Shown here piece by piece: positions 17,806-56,768 of a stretch of DNA of 64,000 nucleotides. This stretch comes from an uncultured Gammaproteobacteria bacterium. Its GTDB lineage: Bacteria > Pseudomonadota > Gammaproteobacteria > Xanthomonadales > SZUA-36. A program made the position numbers and the translations under genes. Location of the stretch: contig CAVWBD010000011.1 of assembly GCA_963753105.1 (NCBI GenBank), positions 11,802 to 75,801 of the forward strand, written 5' to 3'. The notes under the pieces were generated by a model. It was not told the DNA's origin, made no database searches, and worked only from the letters and a program-made list of their open reading frames with translations. Within the stretch, counting starts at the first letter, position 1. Every line of letters starts with the position of its first letter.

Positions 17806-18234
17806 ATGTACCGACTGATCTACAAGAGCCGATGTAACGGCGAAATCACCTGGGAGTTGATCAAATCGATCCTGCACGAGAGCGAACGTCTGAACACTGA
17901 GCGTGAGATAACCGGCGTGTTACTGGCCAGTTCCAGCCATTTCTTGCAGGTTATCGAGGGCAGCTTCGAGAGCGTCAACGAGACTTTTATACCCATTATC
18001 CAAGATTCCCGCCACCGGGATATCCGCTTGCTCGGGTTTCAATGCGTGGACGCGCGACTTTTCGATGGCTGGGGCATGCGCGGGATCGGAGTGTTTGACT
18101 TCAATCAAGAACTATCCCAGAAACTGATCCTTAAGTACGGCGAAGAGGAAGGGGGAGTGCACTTTCCGCTGGAGGAATGGAAGGCCTTGGCCCTGATCAA
18201 CGATATCCGCATGATGCAAAAGCTACCAGACTGA
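17806..18234 (+). CDS. short BLUF-domain blue-light FAD photoreceptor
   Basis: MYRLIYKS...ITGVLL...FLQVIEG....V..TF..I..D.RH is the canonical BLUF pattern. 142 aa with no output domain. Confidence 0.85.
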   Translation: MYRLIYKSRCNGEITWELIKSILHESERLNTEREITGVLLASSSHFLQVIEGSFESVNETFIPIIQDSRHRDIRLLGFQCVDARLFDGWGMRGIGVFDFNQELSQKLILKYGEEEGGVHFPLEEWKALALINDIRMMQKLPD

Positions 18235-21166: not shown

Positions 21167-21520
21167 GTGCATGAAATGGCAATATGCCAGGGCTTGATGA
21201 ACCAGGTCGAGCAGATCGCCAGGGAAAAGGGCGCCAGCCGGGTGGAGCACATCGTGCTCTCCATCGGGCCGCTGGCGGGTGTCGAGCCGGAACTGCTCAG
21301 CCGTGCTTTCGAAGTGGCGCGCGCTGACACGGTCGCTAATGATGCCGAACTCGAAATTGAAACCGGCCCGGTCGTGGTCGAATGCCGCAGTTGCGGGACC
21401 AGGGGCGAGGCGAAAGTCAACCGTCTGTTATGCCCCTCATGCGGTGATTGGAAGGTAAACCTGGTGCAGGGTGATGAGCTGCTACTTTTGCGTCTCGAGG
21501 TCAGCGGGGTTCCTGACTGA
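21167..21520 (+). CDS. hypA: hydrogenase nickel-insertion protein HypA
   Basis: GTG start giving the MHEMAICQGL N-terminus (MHE Ni-binding motif). Zn site CRSCG...CPSCG. 117 aa. Confidence 0.9.
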   Translation: MHEMAICQGLMNQVEQIAREKGASRVEHIVLSIGPLAGVEPELLSRAFEVARADTVANDAELEIETGPVVVECRSCGTRGEAKVNRLLCPSCGDWKVNLVQGDELLLLRLEVSGVPD

Positions 21521-21673
21521 GTCGTGCAGTTTTGCCTATGTCATTTGAGTGAATTTACCTAGGTAATTCAAGCAGTTTCGCTTCACCCACAGCACCCAGA
21601 CCTTAATGATACGCCGGGCCAATACAAAGGCTAAATAGTTTTATTTCCGTTAGCACAGAAATCGAAAATTTAA

Positions 21674-21715
21674 TTGATCTGGGTCAATTAAAAATGGATT
21701 TTCGCGACAGATAAT
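21674..21715 (+). promoter_or_regulatory. putative class II FNR/CRP-family-dependent promoter of the hydrogenase operon
   Basis: TTGATctggGTCAA (21674..21687) matches 9/10 of the TTGAT-N4-ATCAA consensus and sits inside a longer palindrome TTAATTGATC..GTCAATTAA. GATAAT (21710..21715) lies where a -10 would be if the box is centred at -41.5. The ATG is at 21746. Confidence 0.5.
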
Positions 21716-21745
21716 CCGACTCTAATCAGTACGGAACCAGCGGAC

Positions 21746-22822
21746 ATGAAATGGACGATTAGTGGTTCGAGTAATCTTGATGAAGTCCTGGCCTTTTTGG
21801 CAAACGGTCGCCAAACTTTTGCCCTGGAAAGCCTCGAAAACGACACCTACCGACTGGTACAGGCAGACGCATGGCAACCCGGCCTGCACACACTGGGAGA
21901 ATTCAGACAAACAGAGCCCTTGAAGGCTCTGTTTTTCCCTGCGCGCGAATTTATCGGCCGCTGGGGTGAGCCTGCCGGCCGCGAGCCGATGCCGGAGCGT
22001 ATCGTTTTTGGTGTGAAAAACTGCGACCTGTCTTCTTTGGCCATATTTGACCACGTTTTCCTGCATGGCGTGGATAAGGACACCTATTACGCCGAAGCCC
22101 GTGACAAGACCATCCTGGTCTCGAGTGATTGCGGCAGCCAGCTGGATGTGTGTTTTTGCACGGCGGTTGGTGAACAGCCTTATGCGCGACAGGGCTTTGA
22201 CATCAATATCGCTTCCACGCCGGACGGTTATGTCATCGAGTCCGGTTCAGAGCGTGGCCAGGCACTGTTGGAAGGCGCCGGGGATGTCCTTGAGCCGGCC
22301 AGCGATGTGTTGGTCGAAACACTTGAAAAACAGAGGGCCGGACGTTATGCGGAACTCGCCGAACAGGGCAGTGCACACGGGCTGAGTTCCGGCATGGATT
22401 TCCGCGCAGCGATTGAGGGTGCGTTCGAATCCGGCTTGTGGGCCGATTTCGCCGTGGACTGTGTCGAGTGCGGCGCCTGCAACTTTATCTGTTGTACCTG
22501 CCACTGTTTCCTGCTGGCCGATGGCCTGGACGCGGATGGCAAGGCGGCACGTACCAAGTTATGGGACGCCTGCCTGTATTCCGGTTTTGCAGCTGTCGCC
22601 GGTGGTGGCAATGCCCGGCCGTTACGTGCGGAGCGTCTGCGTAATCGCTTTGACAAGAAGTTCAGTTATTTCCCACAGGTCATGGATCGCTATGCCTGTG
22701 ACGGGTGCGGGCGCTGTACAGAGGCCTGCATAGCCAATATTGATATCCGAGATGTATTAAGGAGGGCTGTCGATGTATCCGACACTCTACATGCCCATTC
22801 CAGCGACCATCGAGCGGATTGA
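21746..22822 (+). CDS. HydB/AsrA-like iron-sulfur subunit (sulfhydrogenase beta / anaerobic sulfite reductase A family)
   Basis: 358 aa. Cys clusters CVECGACNFICCTCHC and CDGCGRCTEACIANIDI. Size and layout match the beta subunit that partners the FAD/NAD(P) gamma subunit. Confidence 0.75.
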   Translation: MKWTISGSSNLDEVLAFLANGRQTFALESLENDTYRLVQADAWQPGLHTLGEFRQTEPLKALFFPAREFIGRWGEPAGREPMPERIVFGVKNCDLSSLAIFDHVFLHGVDKDTYYAEARDKTILVSSDCGSQLDVCFCTAVGEQPYARQGFDINIASTPDGYVIESGSERGQALLEGAGDVLEPASDVLVETLEKQRAGRYAELAEQGSAHGLSSGMDFRAAIEGAFESGLWADFAVDCVECGACNFICCTCHCFLLADGLDADGKAARTKLWDACLYSGFAAVAGGGNARPLRAERLRNRFDKKFSYFPQVMDRYACDGCGRCTEACIANIDIRDVLRRAVDVSDTLHAHSSDHRAD

Positions 22823-23603
22823 GGACGAAACGCCTGATATAAAGACGTTTACGATTCGTCCGGTAGAGCCGGTACCGTTTGCGGCCGGCCAGTTCGTCGA
22901 ACTGGCGGTCCCAGGTATCGGTGAGGCGCCGTTCACACCATCCTCTTCACCAAAGATTTCAGAGAACATGGAAATCACCATCATGCGCACCGGGCGGGTG
23001 ACCGACTGGCTGCACAATATGAAGGAAGGTGACGAAGTGGGTGTGCGCGGGCCGATGGGACGGGCCTATCCGATCGAGGCCTTTCACGGCCGTGAAATCC
23101 TGATTGTTGGGGGCGGTTGCGGCGTGGGTCCGTTGCGTAGCCTGTTACTGGCATTGATCGAAGACCTGGACGCTTATTCCCGCATCATCGTGCGTTATGG
23201 CGCAAAGACACCGGACAGCATCGTCTTTCGGGATGCGCAGATGAACGGATGGCATCACAAGGATGCGATGGACGTGATGCTGACGGTCGATGAGGCCAGC
23301 AATGGCTGGGACGGCCACGTCGGTGTGATCACCGACATCCTCGAGGAGGATTATCTCGACTGCCACGCCAGTGACGGCATTGCCGTCATGTGCGGCCCGC
23401 CCATCATGATGAAGTACGGAACCGAAAAGCTACTGCAACGCGGTTACCGGCCGGAAAACATTTACCTGTCCATGGAGAAAAACATGAGTTGCGGCATTGG
23501 CCAGTGCGGTCATTGCCGTATGGGCGTTTATTACTGCTGCAAGGACGGACCGGTGTTCACCTACGACGAAGTTCAATCTGACCCGAGGGTGTGGGATGAC
23601 TGA
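22773..23603 (+). CDS. HydG/AsrB-like FAD/NAD(P)-binding oxidoreductase with C-terminal [2Fe-2S]
   Basis: Ferredoxin-reductase-type FAD/NAD(P) fold (FTIRP...GQFVEL..., ILIVGGGCGVGPLRSL). C-terminal CGIGQCGHCRMG...C motif. AGGAGG 7 nt upstream of the ATG. 50-nt overlap with the upstream gene. Confidence 0.8.
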   Translation: MYPTLYMPIPATIERIEDETPDIKTFTIRPVEPVPFAAGQFVELAVPGIGEAPFTPSSSPKISENMEITIMRTGRVTDWLHNMKEGDEVGVRGPMGRAYPIEAFHGREILIVGGGCGVGPLRSLLLALIEDLDAYSRIIVRYGAKTPDSIVFRDAQMNGWHHKDAMDVMLTVDEASNGWDGHVGVITDILEEDYLDCHASDGIAVMCGPPIMMKYGTEKLLQRGYRPENIYLSMEKNMSCGIGQCGHCRMGVYYCCKDGPVFTYDEVQSDPRVWDD

Positions 23604-24096
23604 TGCAAGCTTTAAACGGTTGATTATCGACCTGGAAAAATGTGATCAGTGCGAATCCTGCGTCGTGGACTGCGGGTACTACAACCGGCCACATGCGAAA
23701 GAGAATGGCCTGTCCTGGTTGCGCCAGAAAGCAACCTTCGCCGTGATCTGCCGCCGCTGCGCCCAGGCGAGTTGTATTGATGCCTGTGCTTTTGAAGCGC
23801 TGGACCGTGGCGATGACATGGTCCTGCAACGCCATAATATGCGTTGCGTCAGTTGCAAGATGTGTGCACACGCCTGTCCATTCGGCACGATTTACACGGA
23901 TATGCTGGCTTTCTACGAGGTCAACTGCGACGCCTGTCTCGCGAACCGCGACGAGGCGCCGGCCTGCGTGGCCAGTTGTCTTCACGGCGCACTGGAGTAC
24001 CGCGATACGGATCCTTCCGAAGCCGGTATCCATATTGTTGACGAGAACCTGGCCGTTCGTGCCAAGGGCTGGGTGAGAATGGAGGCGGCATCATGA
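23596..24096 (+). CDS. HycB/HydN-like poly-[4Fe-4S] ferredoxin subunit
   Basis: Four Cys groups: CDQCESCVVDC, CRRCAQASCIDAC, CVSCKMCAHACP, CDAC...CVASC. ATG overlaps the upstream stop (ATGACTGA). Confidence 0.8.
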   Translation: MTDASFKRLIIDLEKCDQCESCVVDCGYYNRPHAKENGLSWLRQKATFAVICRRCAQASCIDACAFEALDRGDDMVLQRHNMRCVSCKMCAHACPFGTIYTDMLAFYEVNCDACLANRDEAPACVASCLHGALEYRDTDPSEAGIHIVDENLAVRAKGWVRMEAAS

Positions 24097-25019
24097 AAGG
24101 GAACATGGTGATAGTCGAGTTCCTGTTGTTTCCCGGCTTGTTGTTTACGGCCATCGCCGGCCTGCTGACCAGCTGGGTGGACCGCAAGGTAACCGCATTG
24201 GTGCAGATGCGCGTGGGACCACCGCTGCTGCAACCCTTCCACGATATCCGCAAGCTTTTCATAAAGGAAACCTGTGTGCCCGAGAACGGCGCCATTGGTA
24301 CGTTCCTGCTGGCCCCTTTGCTGGGCCTGGCGGCAGTAGCACTGGCGTCGATGATCCTGTGGCGTACGCTGCTGGATGCCGAGGCCACCTTCGTCGGTGA
24401 CCTGATCGTGCTGATCTACCTGCTGGTGATGCCGGCCCTGGGTGTCATGCTGGGTTCTTTTGCCTCCCGCAATCCACTGGCCTCGCTCGGTGGCAGCCGT
24501 GAAGTCAAGTTGATGATCGCCTACGAGTTGCCGATGGTGCTGGCCATACTGGTGCCGGTCATCCAGGCGGGAAGTATCCGCCTCGGCGACCTGCTGACCA
24601 GCCAGGCACCGATCCTGAGTATTTCCGGTGTGCTGGCGCTGCTGGTTTCGATCGCCTGTATGCAGGCCAAGCTGACCATCGTGCCGTTCGACATGCCGGA
24701 AGCAGAAACCGAGCTCAGCGGCGGTGCCTTGATCGAATATTCCGGACCACCGCTGGCGATGTTCAAGCTGACCCGGGCGATGATGTTGTTCACGCTTCCG
24801 GTGTTGCTGGTCGTACTGTTTTTTGGTGGCCTGCTGACAGGCCCGGTTTGGCAGCGCTGGTTGATCGGCTTCCTCGTGTGGTTCGTACTGGTGGCCATCA
24901 CCATCGTCTTGAGAAATACCACCCCGCGGGTGCGTATCGACCAGGCCGTGCGCTTTTTCTGGGGGCCGGTCAGCGTCGTGGCCCTGCTCGCGGTCGTACT
25001 GGCCTGGCTGGGTTGGTGA
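24093..25019 (+). CDS. NuoH/HycD/MbhM-like membrane subunit of group-4 hydrogenase
   Basis: 308-aa polytopic protein. LTSWVDRKVTALVQMRVGPP... matches the complex I subunit 1 family N-terminal signature. ATGA overlap with the upstream gene. Confidence 0.85.
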   Translation: MKGNMVIVEFLLFPGLLFTAIAGLLTSWVDRKVTALVQMRVGPPLLQPFHDIRKLFIKETCVPENGAIGTFLLAPLLGLAAVALASMILWRTLLDAEATFVGDLIVLIYLLVMPALGVMLGSFASRNPLASLGGSREVKLMIAYELPMVLAILVPVIQAGSIRLGDLLTSQAPILSISGVLALLVSIACMQAKLTIVPFDMPEAETELSGGALIEYSGPPLAMFKLTRAMMLFTLPVLLVVLFFGGLLTGPVWQRWLIGFLVWFVLVAITIVLRNTTPRVRIDQAVRFFWGPVSVVALLAVVLAWLGW

Positions 25020-25037
25020 ATCCATGAGGATGAATTT

Positions 25038-25535
25038 ATGAGCAATGCAATCAACGCACTGACACGTTCACTGAATGTATTCCACCTGGCAGGCAGCGCC
25101 TGTAATAACTGTGATATCGAGATACTCGATGCACTGACACCGAAATACGACCTGGAGCGTTTTGGTATCACCCTGGTCGGCAGTATCCGTCACGCGGATG
25201 TGCTGCTGATGTCGGGTATTTTTAACCGCAAATCCGCCATACGTGCGCAGGAACTGATTGCGCAGGCACCCAAACCCTACCTGGTGATTGCGATTGGTGG
25301 ATGTCCAGCCACCGGCCTGATGTGGCGCGAGTCCTACAACTGGGATCGCCCGCCAGGTGAGTTCGTCAAAATCGATGCCTTTGTGCCCGGCTGTCCACCG
25401 AAACCCGAAGCAATGATCAGTGCCGTGGTCAAGGTCGTTGGCGCGTTGCGCAGTGGGGACCTGGTGCCCGGATGCCTGCAGGAGACCGATACAGTAGTGG
25501 ATGAACCCGCTATTGAGACGGCGGGTGGCGTGTGA
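25038..25535 (+). CDS. NuoB/HycG/MbhJ-like [NiFe]-hydrogenase small subunit
   Basis: [4Fe-4S] ligands CNNCDIE..., GGCP, PGCPP, as in the NuoB family. Confidence 0.9.
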   Translation: MSNAINALTRSLNVFHLAGSACNNCDIEILDALTPKYDLERFGITLVGSIRHADVLLMSGIFNRKSAIRAQELIAQAPKPYLVIAIGGCPATGLMWRESYNWDRPPGEFVKIDAFVPGCPPKPEAMISAVVKVVGALRSGDLVPGCLQETDTVVDEPAIETAGGV

Positions 25536-25999
25536 TGAAAGATAAAGAGGACGTCATGAGCATTGAGACTGTCTTGCATGCGATGCAGGAGAAATTTGGT
25601 GACGAGGTGCTGGCGTACCAGCAGAAATCACGGCGGCTTTACATCGATATCGCAGCAAAGGTGATTAAGGATGCCAGCCTGCTGATGATCAATGAGTTCA
25701 AGGCGCGCTTCCAGATCGCCACCGGCGTGGATACCGAGGCGGGATTCGAGGTGATGTACCACTGGGCACTGGATGACGACGATTTTGTCGTCACCATCAG
25801 GGTCGTACTGGAGCACGCTGCACCACAGGTGGATTCAATTGCCCTGGTCTGTCCCGCTGCCGAGTGGATCGAAAGGGAAATGTGGGAGTTGCTGGGGATC
25901 GAGTTCACTGGCCACCCGGACATGCGGCACCTGCTGCTCGCCGATGAGTGGCCGGAAGGCAAATACCCCATGCGCCGTGACTACGAGGCGACACCATGA
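25532..25999 (+). CDS. NuoC/MbhK-like (30 kDa) subunit
   Basis: 155 aa. ...WIEREMWELLGIEFTGHPDMRHLLL... is the conserved NuoC motif. Start overlaps the upstream stop. Confidence 0.85.
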   Translation: MMKDKEDVMSIETVLHAMQEKFGDEVLAYQQKSRRLYIDIAAKVIKDASLLMINEFKARFQIATGVDTEAGFEVMYHWALDDDDFVVTIRVVLEHAAPQVDSIALVCPAAEWIEREMWELLGIEFTGHPDMRHLLLADEWPEGKYPMRRDYEATP

Positions 26000-27216
26000 G
26001 CAAGCGGACCATCATACCCATCGGCCCTTACCATGCCCTGCAGGAGGAACCCGAGTTCTTCAAATTGCACGTCGAGGGTGAGAAGGTTGTGCACCTCGAT
26101 ATCGAGCTGGGCTACAACCACCGCGGCATCGAGAAATTGTCGGAGTCAAAGACCTTCGAGGAGACCGTTTTCCTGGTCGAGCGCATCTGTGGTATCTGCT
26201 CGACCTCGCACCCGCTGGCCTGTGTGCAGGCGGCCGAAGATGCCGGTGACATACCGGTGCCCGAGCGGGCCCTGTTTATCCGCACCGTGGTGGGTGAGCT
26301 GGAACGTATCCATTCGCACCTGTTGTGGCTCGGACTGGCCGGGCATTTCCTCGGCTTCAACACCATCTGGATGTGGGCCTGGCGTTTTAGAGAAGACGTA
26401 CTCAACATCCTCGAACTGATCACAGGCAACCGCAACCACTACGGCATGATGAAACCCGGTGGTGTACGCCGGGACATCAATAACACCGACCTGCCGGCGA
26501 TCGCCAAGCTGGCCGACGGCCTCAAGGACCCCATCAAGATGTTCCGTGACGCGGTCGTGCAGGACCCCTTGATCCACGCACGCACCAAGGGGATCGGCAT
26601 CCTGAGCCTTGAACAGGCCATTGCCTATGGCGCACTTGGCCCGACGGCACGCGCCTCGGGTTATGCCATCGATGTACGGCGCGACCACCCGCACGCGGCC
26701 TATGGCCTGGTTGATTGGGATGTCGTGACCTGCGAGGGCGGTGACGTATTCGATAAGGCCGTGGTACGTATCCTCGAGATGTTCGAGTCCATACGCATCA
26801 TCGAACAGTGCCTTGAGCAACTGGAGAAGGTCGGTGGTTCCGTTGACTCTGCCCCCAAGTTCGTGGCGGCAGGGGAGGGTATTGGCCATTACGAGGCACC
26901 GCGTGGTGAAGTATTCCACTACGTGCGCAGCGATGGCAGCAACCGCCCCATACGGCACAAGGTGCGTGCACCGAGTTTCATGAACGTGCCCACCAACCGG
27001 GAAACCGTTCTTGGTGCGACAGTGGCCGACGCCACGATCATCCTGGCCGCGGTTGACCCGTGTTATTGCTGCACGGAGCGCATGGCCGTGGCCGTGGACG
27101 GTGACAGCGGTGAACGCTTGCTGGGTGCGCGTGACCTGATCCGCCTGTCCTGTGAAAAAACTGACCGCCTGATGGCGGATTCCGGCCTGCAAGGGCCGTC
27201 ATTGCCGATTGATTGA
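25996..27216 (+). CDS. group-4 [NiFe]-hydrogenase large (catalytic) subunit, NuoD/HycE/MbhL-like
   Basis: N-terminal RICGICSTSH (26182..26211) and C-terminal DPCYCCTER (27055..27081) Ni-Fe ligand motifs are both intact. A 44-aa C-terminal extension follows the Arg. Confidence 0.9.
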   Translation: MSKRTIIPIGPYHALQEEPEFFKLHVEGEKVVHLDIELGYNHRGIEKLSESKTFEETVFLVERICGICSTSHPLACVQAAEDAGDIPVPERALFIRTVVGELERIHSHLLWLGLAGHFLGFNTIWMWAWRFREDVLNILELITGNRNHYGMMKPGGVRRDINNTDLPAIAKLADGLKDPIKMFRDAVVQDPLIHARTKGIGILSLEQAIAYGALGPTARASGYAIDVRRDHPHAAYGLVDWDVVTCEGGDVFDKAVVRILEMFESIRIIEQCLEQLEKVGGSVDSAPKFVAAGEGIGHYEAPRGEVFHYVRSDGSNRPIRHKVRAPSFMNVPTNRETVLGATVADATIILAAVDPCYCCTERMAVAVDGDSGERLLGARDLIRLSCEKTDRLMADSGLQGPSLPID

Positions 27217-27226
27217 AGAGATTAAT

Positions 27227-29096
27227 ATGGCTTCTGTACAACTGATCACCCATCCGATGGCATTGCCGGTGGTCTTCCCATTACTGGCGGGACTGGTTTG
27301 CCTGTTGCTTCCAAACGCGGCAAGCCGTCTGCGAGCCTGTGCTGGCGGCGCTGGCCGCCGTTTTTGTCATGGCACTGGTCTGGCCGCTGTTCCAGCAGGC
27401 CGGTGAACTCTGGGATCCGTTGCCCTGGCTGAGCCTGCGCACGGATCTTCTGAGCGTATTTATCCTGCTGGGTGTGGCGTTTTTCGGGCTGGTAGTTGCG
27501 GTCTACTCGATTGGATACATGAAAGACCGTCCGCGCCAACGGGAGTACTTCACCTACCTGTTGTGGACCCTGGGCATCTCCTGTGGCGTGGTATTGGCCA
27601 ATGACCTGCTGATGTTGCTGGTGTGCTGGGGCTTCCTTGGCCTGACACTCTACCTGATGGCGGGTCTGTCGGGACCGGGTGCGGCGGAGGCCGCGCGCAA
27701 GTCGCTGATGATCATCGGTGGCTCCGATGCGCTGATGTTACTGGGAGTCCTGATCTACTGGCACCTCGCCGGTACCACCCGCATGGACGGGGCCGCGCTG
27801 GCGCTGGACAGCCCCTTGGCCTACACGGCATTTTTGACCCTGCTCGCCGGCGCTTTTGCCAAGGCGGGCGCTGTGCCATTCCACTCCTGGGTGCCCTCCT
27901 TTGGTGAAAAAGTTGATGCGCCGGTCTCGGCGTTTCTACCTGCCTCGCTGGACAAGTTACTCGGCATCTACCTGCTGGCCCGCATCGTGCTGGACCTGTT
28001 TATCCCGACGCCGGCCATGTACGGCATGCTGATGTTGCTCGGCGCCGTAACCGTTATCGCCGCCGTGTTGATGGCACTGGTACAGCACGACCTGAAACGC
28101 CTGTTGTCGTTCCACGCCGTGAGCCAGGTCGGTTACATGATCCTCGGTATCGGTACCGGCACGGCCATTGGCCTGGCCGGTGGCCTGTTCCACATGCTGA
28201 ACAACACGGTTTACAAGTCTGCGCTGTTCCTCGGCGCCGGAATGGTCGAAAAGGAAACCGGCACTACCAACCTGGACCGCCTGGGTGGCCTGGCCAAGCT
28301 GATGCCGGTTACGTTCATCGTTTGCGCAGTGGCGGCCCTGTCCATATCGGGTATCCCGCCGCTGAACGGTTTTGCGTCCAAGTGGATGATCTACCAGGGC
28401 ATCATCAGCTCCGGTGATAACGGCAGTTTTGCCTGGGTGCTGTGGCTGGCAGTGGCCATGCTGGGATCAGCCCTGACCCTGGCCAGTTTCGTCAAGGTGC
28501 TGCACGCCACTTTCCTGTGCAAGCCCTCCGCCAGGATTCGGCAGATGGACATCAGTGAAAAGCATTACAGCATGTTGTTGCCGATGATCGTGCTGGCAGT
28601 GTTGTGCGTGGTCTTCGGCGTATTCGCCTTCCAGGTTCCACTCGGACAGCTGATCTTCCCGATCGTTGAAGTGACCGTGCCCGGTGTCTGGTGGTCAGGT
28701 CTCGCAACCGTGCTGATCCTGCTGGCGGTTATCGTGGGTATCGGCCTGTACTGGCTGACGATGCGTGGCGGCAAACTGCGTCGCGTGCGCACTTATATCG
28801 GTGGTGAGCAGATGCAGGACGTGTACATCAGCAATGATGAACCGGGTCCGCAACGGCATGTCGAGGTCACCGGTGTCGACTTCTATGACACCATCGAGCA
28901 GATGCCCGGTCTGCACCGCTATTACGCGCTGATGAAGGCCCGCGTATTCGACATCTATAACTTCTTCAAACGTGTCGCCGACTACCTGGTCCAGGCCCTG
29001 CGCTCGATCCACACCGGCATCCTGCCGTCTTACTTGAGGTGGTTTGTTGCCGGGCTTTTGCTGGTGGTCTGGGTGGTCACGATGGAGGGCAGCTGA
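27227..29096 (+). CDS. MrpA/NuoL-like antiporter-type membrane subunit (frame change near 27337)
   Basis: ATG 27227 gives TM1 (MASVQLITHPMALPVVFPLLAGLVCLLLPNAASRLRA). The remaining 585 aa (VLAALAAVFVMALVW...YSIGYM...WVPS...) continue in another frame from 27339. The NuoL/M/N family fold is clear. Confidence 0.75.
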
Positions 29097-29097
29097 C

Positions 29098-29663
29098 ATG
29101 ATTGAAGTGCTTGCTTTGTTGATCCTGTTGACCGTAATCGCCGCGATCATCACGGTGCTGACATCTAACCTGCTGTACGCGGTGATCAGTGTCGGCGCGG
29201 TCGGCTTCCTGCTGGCCATCGTGTTCCTGTTCCTGTCGGCACCGGACGTCGCCATCGTGCAGATCGGTGTCGAGGTGGTCAGCCTGGTGATCCTGATCCG
29301 GGCGACCCTCGGGCGCGAGGTGCAGAGACTGAAAACCGTCCACGCCGTGGTGGGTGGTGGCGTTTGCCGTGGCCTTCGTGGCAGTGATCGGCCTGTTCGG
29401 TATCCAGATATTCAACGAATTCCCGGAATTCGGTACTTCGGTCATGCAACGATTTACCGATGCGCCATCGCTGGTTTACCTGCAAAGCGGCTCTGGCGGA
29501 AACCGGTGCACCCAACCTGGTCACCGCGGTGCTGCTGGACTTCCGTGCCTGGGACACGCTGGGTGAGGCGACCGTGCTGTTCTGCGCGGCACTCGGCGCA
29601 GTCGCGATACTGCGCAGGAATGCCCGTATCAATGCTGACAAAGAAAAGGATGAAACATCATGA
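29098..29663 (+). pseudogene. MbhD/MbhE-like (MrpA C-terminal / DUF4040 plus MnhB-type) membrane subunit, read in three frames
   Basis: Three segments lie in different frames. The first is MIEVLALL...SAPDVAIVQIGVEVV... (DUF4040-like). The second is VAFAVAFVAVIGLFGIQIFNEFPEFG...APSLVYLQ. The third is ALAETGAPNLVTAVLLDFRAWDTLGEATVLF (MnhB signature). Frame changes are at about 29350 and about 29485. Confidence 0.65.
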
Positions 29664-30172
29664 GTGCACCTCCCCGCAGGTTACGTGACAGGGGAACTGG
29701 CATGAGCATGACCGTGAAGACCGTCATGCGCTGGCTGAAAGGTCCGATCCTTCTGTTTGGTATTTACATGGTCCTGTACGGTCACATCACGCCGGGCGGC
29801 GGTTTTGGCGGTGGCGTGGTCATCGCCAGTGCCTTCATCCTGATCACGCTGGCCGCGGGCCAGAAAGAAGGCATGCGCACATTCCCGCTTGGGGTTGCAT
29901 CGCGGCTGGACAGTGTCGGTCTGCTGCTGTTCCTTGTTATCGGCTGGCTGGGCACCTGGTGGGCAGGGGGCTATTTCTTTGAAAACTATATTGCCACTGA
30001 CGAGGCAGCCCGTTTCAGTCTGCTCAGCGGTGGTGTCATCCCGCTGGGTAACCTCGCGCTGGGACTCAAGGTCGCCAGTGCATTGTTCCTGGTATTCACC
30101 GTGCTGACGGCATTTCACATCAGTGATGAAATACTCGGTATCGAGGACACACAACAGGAGGATGACTCATGA
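29660..30172 (+). CDS. MrpB/MnhB-like subunit
   Basis: YGHITPGGGFGGGVVIASAF motif typical of MnhB. The ATG overlaps the upstream stop (ATGA). An alternative start is at 29702. Confidence 0.8.
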   Translation: MSAPPRRLRDRGTGMSMTVKTVMRWLKGPILLFGIYMVLYGHITPGGGFGGGVVIASAFILITLAAGQKEGMRTFPLGVASRLDSVGLLLFLVIGWLGTWWAGGYFFENYIATDEAARFSLLSGGVIPLGNLALGLKVASALFLVFTVLTAFHISDEILGIEDTQQEDDS

Positions 30173-30516
30173 TTTATTCCCTTTGCCTGTTGTTGATCCT
30201 GATCGGGCTGTACGGCGTGATCGTCAGCCGCCAGACGCTGAAGATCGTCGTCAGCCTGCTGATCATGAACCACGGCGTACACCTGTTGTTACTGCTGATT
30301 GGTTATCGCCAGGGTGGCAATCCGCCGATCGTCGATCCGGGTGTTGCCATTGCTGATTTTGCGGCCGGTGCCGTGGATCCGCTGCCTCAGGCCATGGTGC
30401 TGACTTCCATCGTCATCGGCCTGGGTGTGCTGGCGCTGATGGTGGCCCTGTGCGTGCGCCTGTACGAGCGCTATGGAACCTTTGACGTGACCGAAATCCG
30501 GCGGCTACGGGGATAG
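30169..30516 (+). CDS. MrpC/MnhC (NuoK-like) subunit
   Basis: 115 aa, 3 TM helices, NuoK/MnhC-like sequence. Overlaps the upstream stop. Confidence 0.85.
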   Translation: MIYSLCLLLILIGLYGVIVSRQTLKIVVSLLIMNHGVHLLLLLIGYRQGGNPPIVDPGVAIADFAAGAVDPLPQAMVLTSIVIGLGVLALMVALCVRLYERYGTFDVTEIRRLRG

Positions 30517-30517
30517 T

Positions 30518-32002
30518 GTGATGTTTGGAATGAACATTGATGTGCAAACCCTGATTCCCATGTTCGTGGCCATACCACTGGGCATGGCCCTGCTGATCCA
30601 GCTGGTGGCGCGGCATCGTAAGGTGCTGGCCGAATCACTGAATATCTTCGCCATGTTGGTGCTGGCGGTGATGAGTTGGGCCACGATCGGTGGCGAGGGT
30701 ATTTATCACCTCGGCGGCTGGCCGACCCCGGTCGGCATCGACATGCGGTTGGACGCGCTGACGACGCTGTTGTTGCTGGTCGTCAGCATGGTCGGGCTGG
30801 CTGTGAGCCTGTACTCGGTTGACTACATGCGCCGATTCACCTCGCGCAGTCATTTTTACAGCCTGTTCATGCTGATGGTATGCGGCATGAACGGTGTCAT
30901 CCTGGCGGGTGATTTGTTTAACCTTTACGTGTTCCTGGAGGTCGCAGCCATCGCGTCCTACTCGCTGGTCGCATTTGGTTGTGCACACGAGGAGCTCGAA
31001 GCTTCGTTCAAGTACATCGTGCTCGGTTCCCTGTCGTCAGCCCTGATATTGACCGGCGTGGCGCTGGTCTACGGTATCACCGGTACACTGAACCTGGGTC
31101 ATATCGCCGAGCGAGTCGCAGAAACCGGGATGGAGGCGCCGTTACTGCTCGCCTTCGGTCTGTTTATCGTTGGTTTCGGTTTCAAATCTGCCCTGGTGCC
31201 GTTCCACGCCTGGTTACCGGATGCACACCCGTCCGCTCCCGCACCGGTTTCGGCCATGCTCTCAGGTGTGTTGATCAAGGCCATCGGTGTCTACGTATTG
31301 GCGCGCCTGGCGTTCAACGTTTTTGGTATCAGCGACATCGCTCTGGAAATGCTGCGCTGGCTGGGCTTGTTGTCCATGGTGGTTGGCGGTCTCCTGGCTG
31401 TCGGGCAAAAGGACATCAAGCGGCTGTTTGCATTCAGCAGTATCTCTCAGGTGGGCTTCATGGTGCTCGGATTGGGCCTGGCAACACCGCTGGGTATAGT
31501 CGGCGCCCTGTATCACCTGGTCAACCACTCAATGTTCAAGTCCCTGTTGTTCCTCAATGCCGGTGCGGTGGAATACGCAACCGGGACCCGGAACCTGAAA
31601 CAGCTGGGTGGCTTGAACCGCATGCTGCCGGTGACCGGGGCGACCTCGTTAGTCGGCTCGATGTCCATCGCCGGCGTGCCGCCATTCAACGGTTTCTGGA
31701 GCAAGCTGATCATCGTGCTGGCGTGTATCGAGAGTGGTTACTACGGTCTCGCGACCGCCGCGGTGCTGGTCAGTATCGTGACGCTGGCCTACCAGTTGAA
31801 AGTGCAGCGTATGGCCTTTTTTGCCGCCTTGCCGGATGCGCTGGCGAACATCCGGCGTGAACCGCCGATGATGGCGCTGGCGATGATCCTGCTGGCCGTT
31901 GGCTGTATTGCCTTGTCGTTCCTGATACTGAGCGGTCTGCGTGATCCATGGCTGATCGGAACGGCACAGCAGGTTCTGAGCGCCGGTGTATTTGGCGGAT
32001 AG
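30518..32002 (+). CDS. MrpD/MnhD (NuoM/N-like) antiporter-type subunit
   Basis: 494-aa polytopic protein with FKSALVPFHAWLPDAH...ISQVGFM... motifs of the proton-conducting membrane transporter family. Confidence 0.9.
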   Translation: MMFGMNIDVQTLIPMFVAIPLGMALLIQLVARHRKVLAESLNIFAMLVLAVMSWATIGGEGIYHLGGWPTPVGIDMRLDALTTLLLLVVSMVGLAVSLYSVDYMRRFTSRSHFYSLFMLMVCGMNGVILAGDLFNLYVFLEVAAIASYSLVAFGCAHEELEASFKYIVLGSLSSALILTGVALVYGITGTLNLGHIAERVAETGMEAPLLLAFGLFIVGFGFKSALVPFHAWLPDAHPSAPAPVSAMLSGVLIKAIGVYVLARLAFNVFGISDIALEMLRWLGLLSMVVGGLLAVGQKDIKRLFAFSSISQVGFMVLGLGLATPLGIVGALYHLVNHSMFKSLLFLNAGAVEYATGTRNLKQLGGLNRMLPVTGATSLVGSMSIAGVPPFNGFWSKLIIVLACIESGYYGLATAAVLVSIVTLAYQLKVQRMAFFAALPDALANIRREPPMMALAMILLAVGCIALSFLILSGLRDPWLIGTAQQVLSAGVFGG

Positions 32003-32011
32003 GAGAAAGGA

Positions 32012-32566
32012 TTGGAAATGAATAAGTCAGCTAATACTTTCGAGCGGAAACCCATCATAGAACGGTTGGTATTGTTCGTACTGTCCTTTGCGTTCTGGAT
32101 CATGCTGATATGGCCGGTGACGTCGGCCGATGGGCGCCTGCTTACCGGGGATATCGCTGTCGGTGTATTGGTGGCCGCGTTCGTGGCCCTGATCATGCAC
32201 AACATCATCCGGGTCAAGTTCATCCGCCTGGTCAATCCCGTCAGCTGGTTCTGGGCGTTTGTTTACATGTTCGTGCTCGGCTATTACGTCATCAAGGGCG
32301 GCATTGACGTCAGTTACCGTGTTTTGCACCCGCGTATGCCGATCCGGCCCGGCATCGTGAAGGTCAAGAGCGTGCTCAAAACCGACACCGGCAGATCGGT
32401 ACTGGCCAACTGCATCACGCTGACACCGGGTACGTTGACGATCGATGTGACCGATGACGGCATTTTTTACATCCACTGGCTCAATGTGCTCAGCCTCGAA
32501 GAAGAAGAGGCTGCGAAACACGTCTTGAGGCGTTTCGAGTGGTATATCCAACGGATTTTTGAATAA
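32012..32566 (+). CDS. MrpE/MnhE subunit
   Basis: ANCITLTPGTLTIDV motif and overall MnhE layout. Confidence 0.85.
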   Translation: MEMNKSANTFERKPIIERLVLFVLSFAFWIMLIWPVTSADGRLLTGDIAVGVLVAAFVALIMHNIIRVKFIRLVNPVSWFWAFVYMFVLGYYVIKGGIDVSYRVLHPRMPIRPGIVKVKSVLKTDTGRSVLANCITLTPGTLTIDVTDDGIFYIHWLNVLSLEEEEAAKHVLRRFEWYIQRIFE

Positions 32567-32575
32567 GGAGCCATC

Positions 32576-32851
32576 ATGTTGACAATGGAATTCCTGTTCC
32601 CGGTACTGACAGTTGGCCTGCTGATTTGCTGCGCCATGTGTTTGTATCGCATCGCCAATGGCCCCATGGCTTCAGACCGGATGGTGGCGATCGATATTCT
32701 CGGCACGGTAGTGGTCGGGTTTGTCGCTATTATCACCGCGCTAAGCGGCAGGACCTACTTGCTGGACGTCGCCCTGGTTTGGGCGCTGGTCAGTTTTGCA
32801 GGCACCCTGGCCCTGGCCAAATACCTGGTGGGGAAACGACTCAATGAATGA
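32576..32851 (+). CDS. MrpF/MnhF subunit
   Basis: 91 aa. ...RIANGPMASDRMVAIDILG... is the MnhF signature. Confidence 0.85.
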   Translation: MLTMEFLFPVLTVGLLICCAMCLYRIANGPMASDRMVAIDILGTVVVGFVAIITALSGRTYLLDVALVWALVSFAGTLALAKYLVGKRLNE

Positions 32852-33200
32852 AACGATCGGATTGATACTGTTTGTAATTGGTGTGCTGTTCGACCTGTTC
32901 GGCTGTGTCGGGCTGGTGCGTTTGCCGGATGTCTATAACCGCATCCAGGCATCGACCAAGTGCGTGGTGCTGGGCACGACATTCCTGCTGCTTGGGACCA
33001 TGGTCTGGGTGGGAACTGCCGCAGCCATCATCAAGGGCCTGCTGTGTATCGTATTCGTGTTGATCACGTCCTCGACCGCGGCACACGCCTTGTCCCGTGC
33101 TGCACACCGCTCAGGTGTGCCGCTGGCCGAAGAAAGCATTATTGACCGGTACGCCGATGACATGCAGGCCGAGCCGGGTCACGAGGAGGGCGCGTCATGA
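32844..33200 (+). CDS. MrpG/MnhG subunit
   Basis: MNETIGLILFVIGVLFDLFGCVGLVRLPDVYNRIQASTK is the MnhG signature. The start overlaps the mrpF-like stop. Confidence 0.85.
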   Translation: MNETIGLILFVIGVLFDLFGCVGLVRLPDVYNRIQASTKCVVLGTTFLLLGTMVWVGTAAAIIKGLLCIVFVLITSSTAAHALSRAAHRSGVPLAEESIIDRYADDMQAEPGHEEGAS

Positions 33201-33808
33201 GACTGCCCGCGTTCATGCAACCGAGAATCCTGAAGCAGGCCGTCAAGGCCGCATTTTCACCCGCATTCACGACCAAGTTCCCGGCCGAGCCATATGAACC
33301 GCAGGAAGCCTTCCGTGGCCGTCCGCGTTTCCATGCCGATGACTGCACCGGTTGTGGCGCCTGCGCCGAGGTGTGTCCGCCGAAGTGTATCGATGTAATC
33401 GACGACATCAGCGCCTCGCCGCCAAAACGTGTGCTGGTGCAGCACCTCGATGCCTGCATCGTTTGCGGGCAGTGTGAACGTTACTGTCCGACCCAGGCGG
33501 GTATACGCATGAGCCTGGAGTGGGATTTTGCCGGCTTTGGTCCGGCGGATTTCGAAGAACGTGTTGAGAAGGAGCTGGTGCTGTGCGAGGTGTGCGGTGA
33601 CGTATTGGCGCCGGCTGACCAATTGCGCTGGTTGGCAGAGAAGTTGGGTCCGACCAGCTTTGCCAACCCCACGCTGTCCATGTTTGCCGGGCAGAAGCTG
33701 GGCTACGTAGAGCAGGGGGTACGTAGTACCTCTGCTTTCACGATCCGGGCCGACCGCATGGCGATCCAGTGCCCGAAATGTAAACGCAGGACGGCACGTG
33801 CCGCCTGA
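33197..33808 (+). CDS. NuoI/HycF/MbhN-like 2x[4Fe-4S] subunit with Cys-containing C-terminal extension
   Basis: CTGCGACAEVCP and CIVCGQCERYCP motifs, with extra CEVCG...CPKC in the C-terminal part. ATGA overlap with the mrpG-like stop. Confidence 0.85.
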   Translation: MRLPAFMQPRILKQAVKAAFSPAFTTKFPAEPYEPQEAFRGRPRFHADDCTGCGACAEVCPPKCIDVIDDISASPPKRVLVQHLDACIVCGQCERYCPTQAGIRMSLEWDFAGFGPADFEERVEKELVLCEVCGDVLAPADQLRWLAEKLGPTSFANPTLSMFAGQKLGYVEQGVRSTSAFTIRADRMAIQCPKCKRRTARAA

Positions 33809-33842
33809 GCCAAATTTTTAACCAGAAAAAAGAGAAACAGAA

Positions 33843-34322
33843 ATGGATAAAGTCGTTGTTGACCAGTTGAGCAGTTTTGTGGGTAGCCACGTTTGTGTCA
33901 TGGGTATCGGTAATCGGCACTGGCACGATGACGGTGTCGGGTCCTATATCGCCGAGGCCCTGGATGAGTGCGCGGAACTGGATGTTATCGATGCCGGTTT
34001 TATACCCGAAAACCACCTCGAAGAAGTCGCTGCCAGGCACCCGGATAGCATCCTGATGGTTGATGCCACGGACTTTGGTGGTGAACCGGGTCAGACACGG
34101 CTGATTTATCCCGAAAAAGTTGCCTATTCAGGTGTCTCCACCCATGCCGGCTCACTACGCATGTTGGCCGAGTATATGCACCAGCGAACCCACGCGCCGG
34201 TTGCGCTCCTGGCCATCCAGCCGGAGGATACCAGTGCCGGGGAAAGCCTGTCTCCCGCCGTGGCTGAAACCTTCCGTGACCTGATGGAAAATCTGCCGAA
34301 AGCATGCTGTAAACACACCTGA
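33843..34322 (+). CDS. hycI: hydrogenase maturation endopeptidase (HycI/HyaD family)
   Basis: VMGIGNRHWHDDGVG..., ...IDAG...P, ...MVDATDFGGEPG..., ...HAGSL are conserved protease motifs. 159 aa. Confidence 0.85.
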   Translation: MDKVVVDQLSSFVGSHVCVMGIGNRHWHDDGVGSYIAEALDECAELDVIDAGFIPENHLEEVAARHPDSILMVDATDFGGEPGQTRLIYPEKVAYSGVSTHAGSLRMLAEYMHQRTHAPVALLAIQPEDTSAGESLSPAVAETFRDLMENLPKACCKHT

Positions 34323-34349: not shown

Positions 34350-34386
34350 GGGGTCAGGTTCAATAAACTTGGTTGAACCTGACCCC
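34350..34386. repeat. GGGGTCAGGTTCA-type palindromic element, copy 4
   Basis: GGGGTCAGGTTCAA-taaacttgg-TTGAACCTGACCCC, between the hycI-like stop and the asnA start. Confidence 0.85.
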
Positions 34387-35729: not shown

Positions 35730-36160
35730 TCCCTGTAGGCTCGATCGCGACTCCCTGTCGCTCACGGTCCCGGCTAAGGAACACCCCGGCACAGCTTAAT
35801 GGACCATTTGTAAAACCCATTAACCGTGATCGCGGCGAGGTGCCGCTCCTACAACCCCTTCATGATAGCCCGGTGGTTTGCCGGAGTGGGCGACATTTAG
35901 CACCGCACCGAATCCTTATCTCCATGGATGGAGTGTAGATCGCAAGGAGCACAGGGATGTGCGATGCGATCCGGTAAGGCCTGATACTGAGTCCCTGTGA
36001 GGCCGGCCCCGTTAAGACGGATCGAAGGAGAGGGTGCCCGAAGGGCTGCGGGGCAGGGAGCCCAAACCGGTAAACCATTGGGCGATAGATCGCAGTAAGG
36101 TCGCGGCGAGTCGCCGTTCACACGACATGATCGCGACCGGCTTTGCCGGTTGTTACTACG
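35730..36160. repeat. cluster of degenerate GTAGGAG...CGCGATC-type REP-like palindromic units
   Basis: At least 4-5 units in both orientations. Examples: CTGTAGGCTCGATCGCGACTCCCTGTCGC (35732-), GATCGCGGCGAGGTGCCGCTCCTACA (35828-35853), TGTAGATCGCAAGGAGC...GCGATGCGATCC (35934-35972), GATCGCGACCGGCTTTGCCGGTTGTTACTAC (36129-36159). Confidence 0.65.
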
Positions 36161-40033: not shown

Positions 40034-40204
40034 TCTGAATAGTCCTGGCCAAATGACCCGATGAACCATCTTATCAAATATCTGGTCCCGGCATTGTCTA
40101 GGCCAAAAGCTCATGGGAACTCGTGAAAAATTCGTTTTTCTCTCATGTCATCAGGCCGGGTGGTCGCTAATCTGCAATTGAGTTAAATCACTAAGGAGGT
40201 AATC

Positions 40205-40705: not shown

Positions 40706-40744
40706 GACTGATTGCGGGTTTTAGGTAACCCATTGTATGGAATT

Positions 40745-40771
40745 GCCCCGCCACTGGCGGGGCTTCTTTTT
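40745..40771 (+). terminator. rho-independent terminator
   Basis: GCCCCGCC-actg-GCGGGGC hairpin followed by TTCTTTTT. Confidence 0.7.
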
Positions 40772-40881
40772 GCGATGAATGACAGGTCTGCGTAAACGCC
40801 ACTAATATGTAGCACTCGCCGTCGCTGCAGTTCGGTAAAAAAAACAGCGACAGCCCTGGTGCCTTTCATTTTTCCGGGTTA

Positions 40882-43632: not shown

Positions 43633-43700
43633 GCCAGAAACTAAATCCTATTGAAATCAAATCCACTTTAGGTCCCGTAGTTGTACAAATTATATGCATC

Positions 43701-56704: not shown

Positions 56705-56768
56705 TGTTGACCTCGATTAGGGCCTGTTAGTATTCACTTTGAATCAGTGGATACTAACAGGCCCTGTT

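Follow-up and report, generated by a model that had tools for sequence, protein, structure and literature searches.

By its gene order and large-subunit signature, the hydrogenase locus in this 64,000-nt stretch of DNA (the window) belongs, as a proteobacterial representative, to the Hun family of [NiFe] hydrogenases (group 4, HydDB 4g-like). The 16-subunit 'Hun' operon was named by Glass et al. 2021 (bioRxiv 10.1101/536078), and metagenome studies of 2019-2020 described the same system as the 'Mbh-Mrp-oxidoreductase type' or as an asrA/asrB-linked Mrp-Mbh enzyme (PMC6349859; bioRxiv 10.1101/765248). The window follows the published hunA-P order gene for gene, and the earlier note's view of the locus as an unrecognised chimera has to be given up. 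The large subunit lies in a described subgroup in which such beta-gamma genes are a regular part of the operon, which counts in part against the note's proposal; we found no biochemical characterisation of any Hun member in the literature, in keeping with the note's remark that the coupling mode is uncharacterised. Our preferred reading, a Hun complex with NAD(P)H input, H2 output, ion coupling and FNR-type control, has as a whole about an even chance of being correct.

The operon occupies positions 21746-34322 of the + strand as 17 tightly packed genes, with hypA upstream; Pfam and NCBIfam searches bear out the gene content and order that had been noted. Spacing at the gene junctions varies between -50 and +34 nt, and several neighbours share an ATGA overlap; hunA and hunB overlap by 50 nt, hunC and hunD by 4 nt. 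The spacing between hypA and hunA is 225 nt and contains the promoter, and the position of hypA 5' of hunA is kept in Lysobacterales loci. The features, all on the + strand, are as follows.

21167..21520, +, hypA, Ni metallochaperone (Pfam HypA, E 1e-32)
21674..21687, +, FNR-type box TTGATCTGGGTCAA, 72 nt 5' of the hunA ATG
21688..21715, +, predicted sigma-70-like promoter, TTAAAA-16-GATAAT
21746..22822, +, hunA, AsrA/HydB-like poly-FeS protein with 16 Cys (Fer4_22)
22773..23603, +, hunB, AsrB/HydG-like FAD + NAD(P) + [2Fe-2S] flavoprotein (FAD_binding_6, NAD_binding_1, DHODB_Fe-S_bind)
23596..24096, +, hunC, HycB/CooF-type ferredoxin (Fer4_11; 16 Cys in four [4Fe-4S] motifs; true start ATG 23596)
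24093..25019, +, hunD, NuoH-like membrane subunit (Pfam NADHdh, E 8e-65)
25038..25535, +, hunE, NuoB-like hydrogenase small subunit (Oxidored_q6; Cys 22, 25, 89, 119)
25532..25999, +, hunF, NuoC-like subunit (Complex1_30kDa; alternative start ATG 25556)
25996..27216, +, hunG, NuoD-like [NiFe] large subunit (RICGICSTSH, DPCYCCTER; conserved C-terminal tail of 44 aa)
27227..29096, +, hunH, MrpA/NuoL-like antiporter subunit (Proton_antipo_M/N; 1-nt insertion near 27335-27339)
29098..29663, +, hunI, fused MbhD/MbhE-like subunit (MbhD domain; 1-nt insertions near 29357 and 29492)
29660..30172, +, hunJ, MrpB/MnhB-like (Pfam MnhB)
30169..30516, +, hunK, MrpC/NuoK-like (Oxidored_q2)
30518..32002, +, hunL, MrpD/NuoM/N-like antiporter subunit (Proton_antipo_M, E 1e-68)
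32012..32566, +, hunM, MrpE-like (MNHE)
32576..32851, +, hunN, MrpF-like (MrpF_PhaF)
32844..33200, +, hunO, MrpG-like (PhaG_MnhG_YufB; start ATG 32844 by homology)
33197..33808, +, hunP, HycF/NuoI-like 2x[4Fe-4S] subunit (extra CxxC...CxxC)
33843..34322, +, hycI, large-subunit C-terminal maturation protease (Pfam HycI; TIGR00142 at 88 bits)
34350..34386, +, intrinsic-terminator-like hairpin with a 15-bp stem at the operon end

As in published Hun, AsrC is absent and the Mrp genes stand between the NuoD-like and NuoI-like genes; they lie within the series of hydrogenase genes and are coupled to it translationally, as had been claimed. The Hun-specific CGIC...CYCC signature, also shared with published HunG, is carried by the window locus and by each of the 16 related loci that extend into the hunG region. 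A gene-order search in other genomes, which the earlier note had proposed, found the hun order unchanged in 26 species representatives of GTDB and in all five contigs seeded by HunG instead of HunA, including Omnitrophica SM23_72. Identities of HunA, HunB and HunG drop in parallel, from 86/89/93% (locus L001) to 36/49/61% (locus L026), which argues for inheritance of the module as a single unit. The published hosts are Atribacteria, Firmicutes, Omnitrophica, Elusimicrobia, Bacteroidetes and Kosmotoga (bioRxiv 10.1101/536078), whereas those described here are Proteobacteria (Lysobacterales-like) and not strict anaerobes. The window locus differs further from published Hun in having hycI joined to the operon end, hypA upstream and a conserved FNR-type box, and in lacking a molybdopterin insert.

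The first two genes had been likened to the beta/gamma pair of group 3b enzymes, and the relationship is close. The best PDB matches of HunA and HunB are the beta (9nez_B, E 1e-40) and gamma (9nez_C, E 1e-49, full-length homology) subunits of Pyrococcus furiosus sulfhydrogenase I, and HunB shares 39-42% identity with the gamma subunit of a bacterial 3b enzyme. The group 3b enzymes SHI/SHII of P. furiosus (PDB 9NEZ), with a poly-FeS beta subunit and a gamma subunit carrying FAD, NAD(P)H and [2Fe-2S] sites, provide the closest solved relatives; they are, however, soluble, heterotetrameric enzymes whose alpha and delta subunits are of group-3 type, whereas in Hun the beta/gamma-like pair heads a group-4 membrane enzyme and does not reach the NCBIfam equivalog cutoffs. 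Scores for ShyB/HydB/AsrA and ShyC/HydG/AsrB are indeed far below those cutoffs, which implies a distinct family whose substrate could differ. Judged by their motifs, the FAD, NAD(P) and FeS sites of the pair appear intact and invariant across phyla: 15 of the 16 HunA cysteines are invariant, as are the HunB motifs GEAPFTPSS, GGGxGxxPxR, CGPPxMM and SCGxGxCGHCR among sequences 49-89% identical, the window HunB reading MSCGIGQCGHC in the last. This conservation favours NAD(P)H over the ferredoxin proposed in the literature, and NAD(P)H coupling of the window enzyme is plausible. In its favour too, no other substrate-binding enzyme of the FDH, CODH or AsrC kind is present in the operon or the window; as the earlier note had stated, such domains were not found among the window's 51 largest non-overlapping ORFs (out of 60 ORFs of at least 100 aa).

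We propose that the gene products form one membrane complex, in which a soluble input module would feed the catalytic HunG, seated on a NuoH-like anchor with a full Mrp-type antiporter module (HunD, HunH-O). NAD(P)H would bind HunB, and electrons would leave the FAD singly for the HunB [2Fe-2S] cluster, pass through the HunA clusters to the four clusters of HunC, on which HunAB presumably docks and which would act as a bridge as HycB does in formate hydrogenlyase, and reach the NiFe site by way of HunP and HunE, there reducing protons to H2. The H2 reaction may be reversibly coupled to H+/Na+ movement via the Mrp module.

Parts of this arrangement have counterparts in known systems. P. furiosus MBH (group 4d, PDB 6CFW) likewise combines a group-4 [NiFe] core with an Mrp-type Na+/H+ module, and its large subunit is related to HunG (E 5.5e-83); unlike Hun, it has 14 subunits, uses ferredoxin directly and is without a HunA/B/C-type input module. 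The mbhA-N operon also differs from hun in gene order, its Mrp-like genes coming first. Escherichia coli FHL-1 (Hyc, group 4a, PDB 7Z0S) resembles Hun in the HycB-type four-cluster ferredoxin that forms the link between a soluble dehydrogenase and a HycF-like subunit, in its HycI protease and in a related large subunit (E 1.6e-83), but its input is the molybdoenzyme FdhH rather than a flavoprotein pair, and it is without an MrpB-G set. Respiratory complex I shares the NuoB, C, D, H, I, K, L, M, N-like core and, by analogy, a pyridine-nucleotide-oxidising flavoprotein module on top; that module consists of NuoF, an FMN protein, together with NuoE and NuoG, whereas Hun has an FNR/PyrK-type FAD protein, and the acceptor is quinone in complex I but would be H+ at the NiFe site in Hun.

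Our assignment of the donor departs from that of Glass et al., who predicted reduced ferredoxin (bioRxiv 10.1101/536078). On their reading, which we consider unlikely, Hun evolves H2 from ferredoxin electrons that HunABC would do no more than accept and relay to the NiFe site; the HunB flavoprotein fold would then be a relic or structural. MBH and Ech, the relatives that have been characterised, are coupled to ferredoxin, HydDB labels 4g as 'ferredoxin-coupled (putative)', the described Hun hosts are mostly fermentative, ferredoxin-rich anaerobes, and the reaction from ferredoxin to H2 is exergonic at all H2 pressures considered and could pump ions. The premise that ferredoxin is the AsrAB donor does not fit, however, with the work on Salmonella, in which sulfite reduction is reportedly linked to NADH. 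Furthermore, MBH accepts ferredoxin at its NuoI-like subunit with no need of a three-subunit input module, AsrB and SHI gamma are pyridine-nucleotide flavoproteins (NCBIfam names; PDB 9nez), and cross-phylum invariance of the HunB cofactor motifs would not be expected of a relic. In some strict anaerobes the Hun operon does have an additional gene, for a molybdopterin protein, between hunB and hunC (bioRxiv 10.1101/536078), suggesting that the module can serve another substrate there. With NAD(P)H as donor, it is uncertain which way the reaction runs and with what sign ion movement is coupled to it, since NADH-driven H2 evolution is calculated to be exergonic only below ~66 Pa H2 and endergonic above; for NADPH at -370 mV the calculated yield is -14 to -20 kJ/mol at 10-1 Pa H2, about the cost of one ion moved (14.5 kJ/mol). 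The same wiring might run in reverse, as an ion-pumping H2:NAD(P)+ oxidoreductase drawing reductant and membrane potential from sediment H2. Electron transfer from H2 to NAD+ is calculated to release 18 kJ/mol at 1 bar and ~7 kJ/mol at 1 kPa, published papers describe the group 3b enzymes that share this beta/gamma pair as bidirectional, and in one Verrucomicrobia genome a 3b cluster adjoins hun, so that the two may work in opposite directions. We nevertheless think uptake improbable: at the 1-10 Pa H2 that we assumed for sediments the reaction is reversed, the characterised enzymes of group 4 evolve H2, the predicted FNR-type induction is reminiscent of a fermentative FHL, as are the HycI/HycB/HycF-like parts, and neither a Tat signal nor a cytochrome b gene, features of the uptake type, is present.

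Whether the copy in the window yields a functional product at all depends on how three single-base insertions are read. The Mrp set had been described as complete, which is true of its content, but hunH and hunI are frameshifted as sequenced. In hunH, which actually starts at ATG 27227, the insertion near 27335-27339, seen by comparison with five homologous loci, places the first ~36 codons out of frame with the ORF at 27339-29096; in hunI (ATG 29098), the insertions near 29357 and 29492, seen by the same kind of comparison with five loci, place the MbhE half out of frame, such that only MbhD is detected in the window ORF, whereas the homologues have MbhD and MbhE. If real, these frameshifts would inactivate two membrane subunits and with them this hun copy, and the operon would be a decaying pseudogene cluster, a reading to which we give little credence. 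The remaining hun genes are intact, with proteins 62-92% identical to those of locus L027, and outside hunH and hunI the operon is free of stop codons and deletions. Elsewhere in the window, phoA, a TPP enzyme gene and a FAD_binding_2 gene are also broken, which points to an error-prone assembly rather than hun-specific decay; the three insertions are probably assembly errors.

For an operon that is intact in the organism, the promoter region suggests when it would be expressed. The FNR-type box, of consensus form TTGAT-N4-ATCAA, occurs with at most two mismatches between -71 and -83 in 17 of the 18 loci from Proteobacteria or Verrucomicrobiota that could be tested; in the gamma-, alpha- and betaproteobacterial loci it lies at -72 to -83. 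It is the sole invariant island 5' of hunA in an intergenic alignment of the proteobacterial loci (mean identity 46%). The -10-like GATAAT would put the box centre at ~-41.5 from the inferred transcription start. FNR-type control is a prediction from the sequence match of the box. The window holds no FNR gene; a divergent gene for a cNMP-binding regulator lies upstream in two other loci (L028 and L030).

The hun operon is newly reported here from Gamma-, Alpha- and Betaproteobacteria, Verrucomicrobiota, Planctomycetales and Aegiribacteria MAGs, and the FNR-type box in its proteobacterial promoters is likewise a new observation. In Proteobacteria, transcription from a class-II FNR-type promoter would switch hun on once oxygen runs out, and the NAD(P)H-linked, H2-evolving complex that we favour may give otherwise respiratory heterotrophs in anoxic sediment with little H2 an outlet for NAD(P)H in the form of H2.

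The operon and its immediate surroundings, as called from an ORF listing and from Pfam/NCBIfam scans of the window, are arranged as follows.

21167-21520, + strand: hypA, Ni metallochaperone
21746-22822, + strand: hunA, AsrA/HydB-like poly-FeS protein
22773-23603, + strand: hunB, AsrB/HydG-like protein with FAD_binding_6, NAD_binding_1 and DHODB_Fe-S_bind domains and an internal MSCGIGQCGHC motif
23596-24096, + strand: hunC, 166-aa ferredoxin of the HycB/CooF type with four complete [4Fe-4S] motifs
24093-27216, + strand: hunD-G, NuoH-, NuoB-, NuoC- and NuoD-like
25996-27216, + strand: hunG (last of the preceding four), [NiFe] large subunit with RICGICSTSH and DPCYCCTER
27227-33200, + strand: hunH-O, MrpA-, MbhD/E-, MrpB-, MrpC-, MrpD-, MrpE-, MrpF- and MrpG-like
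33197-33808, + strand: hunP, HycF/NuoI-like ferredoxin
33843-34322, + strand: hycI, maturation protease
34350-34386, 3' of hycI: terminator with a 15-bp stem

With start codons corrected by homology, all 17 junctions of the operon lie within -50 to +34 nt, several of them being ATGA overlaps, and HunG is, judging by its RICGICSTSH and DPCYCCTER motifs, a genuine hydrogenase subunit. Apart from frameshifts, the Pfam/NCBIfam matches bear out the gene content and order described in an earlier note on this DNA, as well as its statement that the window lacks formate dehydrogenase, CO dehydrogenase and AsrC, none of which was found among the 51 largest of the 60 non-overlapping window ORFs of at least 100 aa. 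In every locus hunG and hunP flank the Mrp genes, at spacings of -8 to +10 nt, which rules out an independent, adjoining Mrp antiporter and agrees with the note's assignment of these genes to the hydrogenase cluster. tRNA and Rfam scans of the window returned no matches. The tail of HunG after DPCYCCTER (window 27082-27216) is 32-51 aa long and is kept across phyla, with the motif LIRLSxEKT, in the window and 16 related loci; a peptide that HycI presumably cuts off is not usually so long and conserved, and the tail may have a role prior to cleavage or may be retained.

By gene order and signature motifs, the operon is a member of the known, but uncharacterised, Hun cluster. The 16-subunit 'Hun' respiratory complex was named by Glass et al. 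(bioRxiv 10.1101/536078; published 2021), who described HunA/HunB as AsrA-/AsrB-like, HunC as a ferredoxin, HunD-G as NuoH/B/C/D-like, HunH-O as Mrp-like and HunP as NuoI-like, placed HunG in HydDB group 4g as a divergent enzyme with the signature CGIC...CYCC, and reported hosts among Atribacteria, Firmicutes, Omnitrophica, Elusimicrobia, Bacteroidetes and cultured Kosmotoga (10.1101/536078). The window operon has the same 16 co-directional genes in the same order (AsrA-like, AsrB-like, ferredoxin, NuoH/B/C/D, eight Mrp-like, NuoI-like) and, as in the published cluster, AsrC is missing, with no siroheme-subunit domain in the operon or the window. The same order is found in Omnitrophica SM23_72, a MAG from a sample set used by Glass et al., and the signature, CGIC in L1 and CYCC in L2, is present in the window HunG and in 16/16 related loci that reach that region. 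Window HunG scores 731-860 bits against HunG homologues but ~283 bits against HycE and MbhL, and is 61-64% identical to HunG of Omnitrophota and Aegiribacteria. The unrecognised chimera proposed in the earlier note is thus not supported, because the gene order and CGIC...CYCC signature are those of the published Hun operon. Even before that work, asrA/asrB-like genes on Mrp-Mbh clusters had been noticed as an 'oxidoreductase of unknown function' (PMC6349859; bioRxiv 10.1101/765248), and among those papers a 2019 supplement likened asrA/asrB/cooF-like genes to nuoE and nuoF. In line with the note's view of the coupling mode as biochemically uncharacterised, we found no biochemical work on any Hun member in the literature, nor any characterised NAD(P)H-linked Mrp hydrogenase in that on Methylocystis 4f, Moorella Fdh-Ech, the Pelobacter genome and haloalkalitolerant Nitrospira or in reviews of complex-I evolution and of Thermotogae.

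Comparison with better-studied enzymes places the operon among the group 4 [NiFe] hydrogenases, with which it shares a large subunit bearing the L1/L2 CxxC motifs, a four-Cys NuoB-like small subunit, NuoH-like and antiporter-like membrane subunits and a C-terminal protease. The MBH of Thermococcales (group 4d) is encoded by fourteen genes, mbhA-N, has no separate input module and takes electrons directly from ferredoxin; the window operon differs in its three extra input genes, HunA/B/C, and in its gene order. Of the soluble alpha-beta-gamma-delta complement of group 3b sulfhydrogenases the operon has beta- and gamma-like genes only, scoring 139-185 bits with the ShyB/HydB and ShyC/HydG models against NCBIfam cutoffs of 600-750, and its large subunit fits NuoD/HycE/MbhL rather than ShyA/HydA (48 and 26 bits), and it falls outside the NADP-coupled group 3b hydrogenases. 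An AsrABC sulfite reductase was rejected, with AsrC missing and the AsrA/AsrB equivalog models scoring below threshold (TIGR02910, 112 bits, cutoff 323; TIGR02911, 204 bits, cutoff 289). In a Verrucomicrobia MAG (GCA_018823105.1; L031:1-16140), hunA-P is directly preceded by a complete group-3b-type cluster with the same orientation, comprising beta, gamma, delta and alpha subunits and a HycI-like protease. The gamma subunit of that cluster and the HunB encoded in this genome share 42% identity, which makes the two beta/gamma pairs paralogues, one for each hydrogenase; their co-occurrence might point to H2-mediated exchange between NADH and NADPH.

The gene order that the note suggested looking for in other genomes was found both in loci seeded with HunA and in loci seeded with HunG. 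With the AsrA-like protein (HunA) as seed, GTDB species representatives yielded 26 loci, every one from a MAG, with hosts in Lysobacterales and other Gammaproteobacteria, Rhodospirillaceae and other Alphaproteobacteria, one betaproteobacterium, Verrucomicrobiota, Myxococcota, Omnitrophota, Planctomycetales and Aegiribacteria; downstream of the seed, gene order was identical wherever the contig was long enough, and both input genes stood in front in 5/5 loci seeded with the large subunit. The window is closest to Lysobacterales MAGs, and its flanks (peptidase S11, CvfB, a spermidine-synthase-like gene and hypA on one side, asnA and phoA on the other) share synteny with a metagenome contig of 94 kb. 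Public assemblies contained no exact copy of the window's large subunit. Identities of HunA/HunB/HunG to the window fall in parallel, from 86/89/93% in the nearest relative, the Lysobacterales MAG L001, through 62/70/81% (L011) and 39/53/64% (L019) to 36/49/61% (L026), implying that input module and hydrogenase have long been co-inherited and that any 'chimeric' origin is therefore ancient, not local. Searching metagenomic proteins with HunG gave thousands of matches at E <= 1e-30, the best 120 being 76-91% identical; an Omnitrophota HunG query gave a similar picture, with its best 120 matches saturated by Omnitrophota. In the Betaproteobacteria bin90 chromosome (L012), the locus is interrupted by N runs (11323-11422 and 14125-14224) immediately past the first 100 hunB codons, and downstream no other hun genes were detected, which may reflect a scaffolding join or truncation of the operon. 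The extension of the host range to respiratory Proteobacteria is new here, and cultivation and genetic work are likelier to succeed in these lineages than in Atribacteria or Omnitrophota.

As sequenced, the window copy is disturbed by frameshifts that the earlier note missed, so that its claim of a complete Mrp set holds for gene content but not for intact reading frames. hunH (MrpA-like; ATG at 27227, 10 nt past the hunG stop) leaves the frame of ORF 27339-29096 through a single base that is missing from five homologous loci, and hunI (MbhD/E-like; ATG at 29098) carries two more single-base insertions, near 29357 and 29492, because of which Pfam detects MbhD alone in the window copy but MbhD and MbhE in homologues. 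Other window genes, all on the - strand, are also broken. An alkaline phosphatase (35897-37517) is split by an apparent frameshift into overlapping ORFs (35897-36838 and 36693-37517), whereas its homologue in the related locus L027 is one 452-aa gene; a TPP-dependent enzyme is divided between two ORFs, one with the N domain (56306-56704) and one with the M and partial C domains (55189-56259), and a FAD_binding_2 gene (57874-58413) covers only the first 170 profile positions, the latter two (55189-58413) being more signs of indel errors or pseudogenes. Since the damage extends to these genes, an indel-prone assembly is more likely than decay specific to the operon, and the window copy is less likely to be a pseudogene cluster.

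Elsewhere in the window, two large paralogues with an OmpR-type winged-helix DNA-binding domain and TPR repeats (37778-40114 and 43701-45989, within 37778-45989, - strand) enclose a TonB-dependent receptor (40882-43632). A stand-alone BLUF blue-light sensor is encoded at 17806-18234 (+ strand), and a 630-aa ORF at 4983-6875 (+ strand) matches no Pfam family.

A TTGAT-N4-ATCAA box with one mismatch lies at 21674-21687, 72 nt before the hunA start codon (ATG). When up to two mismatches are allowed, the box recurs at -71 to -83 in 17/18 testable proteobacterial or Verrucomicrobiota loci (the window and 16 others), being perfect in seven of them, and it is the only invariant island in eleven aligned intergenic regions of 46% mean identity; it was not found in the Omnitrophota and Aegiribacteria loci. 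The box abuts a promoter-like element, TTAAAA-16-GATAAT (-10-like part at 21710-21715), which would put its centre ~41.5 bp upstream of the predicted transcription start, i.e. in the classical class-II FNR geometry (near -41.5) established for E. coli. This conserved predicted FNR-type promoter, which is also new here, suggests that hun is induced under O2 limitation in proteobacterial hosts, and it tells experimenters the first condition to try, namely anoxia. In both alphaproteobacterial loci fetched with gene annotation (L028:5126-5596 and L030:4135-4605), a 156-aa cNMP_binding (Crp/Fnr-family domain) gene is divergent from hunA and adjoins the box.

HunB provides the sole recognisable substrate site in the operon. 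Along its whole length it is homologous to the NADPH-binding gamma subunit of P. furiosus sulfhydrogenase I (PDB 9NEZ, E 1e-49), and it shares 39-42% identity with the gamma subunit of a bacterial group-3b enzyme. Alignments including the P. furiosus chain (9nez_C) show the features of an FNR/PyrK-type flavoprotein, i.e. FAD motif, Gly-rich NAD(P) loop, CGP motif and C-terminal [2Fe-2S] cysteines; GEAPFTPSS (flavin), GGGxGxxPxR (pyridine-nucleotide loop), CGPPxMM and SCGxGxCGHCR...C ([2Fe-2S]) are invariant in twelve HunB sequences that are 49-89% identical to the window copy, and 15/16 HunA cysteines are invariant. These comparisons, new here, point to a live pyridine-nucleotide site in HunB. 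The interpretation in the earlier note is thus supported in part: the NAD(P)H coupling that it proposed is the best reading, though an inference. Formate hydrogenlyase (PDB 7Z0S) is a model for electron paths via HycB/HycF-like proteins, and by analogy electrons would pass from NAD(P)H to FAD and [2Fe-2S] in HunB, then to the FeS centres of HunA and the four [4Fe-4S] clusters of HunC, and from HunC via HunP and HunE to the NiFe site of HunG, with conformational coupling then to HunD and the Mrp-like membrane module.

To our knowledge, all characterised group-4 hydrogenases receive electrons from formate, CO or ferredoxin. Ferredoxin is a possible donor for Hun, as published, notably in strict anaerobes and in clusters with an inserted molybdopterin protein, but it leaves the invariant nucleotide motifs unexplained; the prediction by the Hun authors rests on analogy to AsrAB (bioRxiv 10.1101/536078), an analogy that would itself point to a pyridine-nucleotide flavoprotein. 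Flavin-based bifurcation is unlikely, HunB apparently being of the PyrK type, not the GltD/NfnB type, and a sulfhydrogenase-like role for HunA in sulfur reduction is also unlikely. A rival to H2 evolution is that the same enzyme works as an ion-pumping H2:NAD(P)+ oxidoreductase, reaction direction and stoichiometry not being readable from sequence. By our calculations, H2 formation from NADH costs +18 kJ/mol at 1 bar H2 and is exergonic only below ~66 Pa, and NADPH near -370 mV would yield -14 to -20 kJ/mol at 10-1 Pa H2. Moving one ion against 150 mV costs 14.5 kJ/mol, roughly the NADPH yield, so pumping by Hun would be possible only at very low H2; above that, an ion gradient would be needed to push H2 out.

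We tentatively propose, at somewhat less than an even chance, that Hun is a complex-I-like respiratory enzyme, the 'N-module' of which is a non-homologous FAD flavoprotein pair, and which would be switched on by an FNR-type regulator in O2-respiring sediment Proteobacteria to survive anoxia at low H2. If true, hydrogenases would gain a mode of coupling so far demonstrated in none of them, and the gain by complex I of its NADH module would have a convergent parallel. If Hun uses NAD(P)H, the main cellular redox pool would be tied directly to H2 and the membrane potential, and the budgeting of H2 production in anoxic sediments would change.
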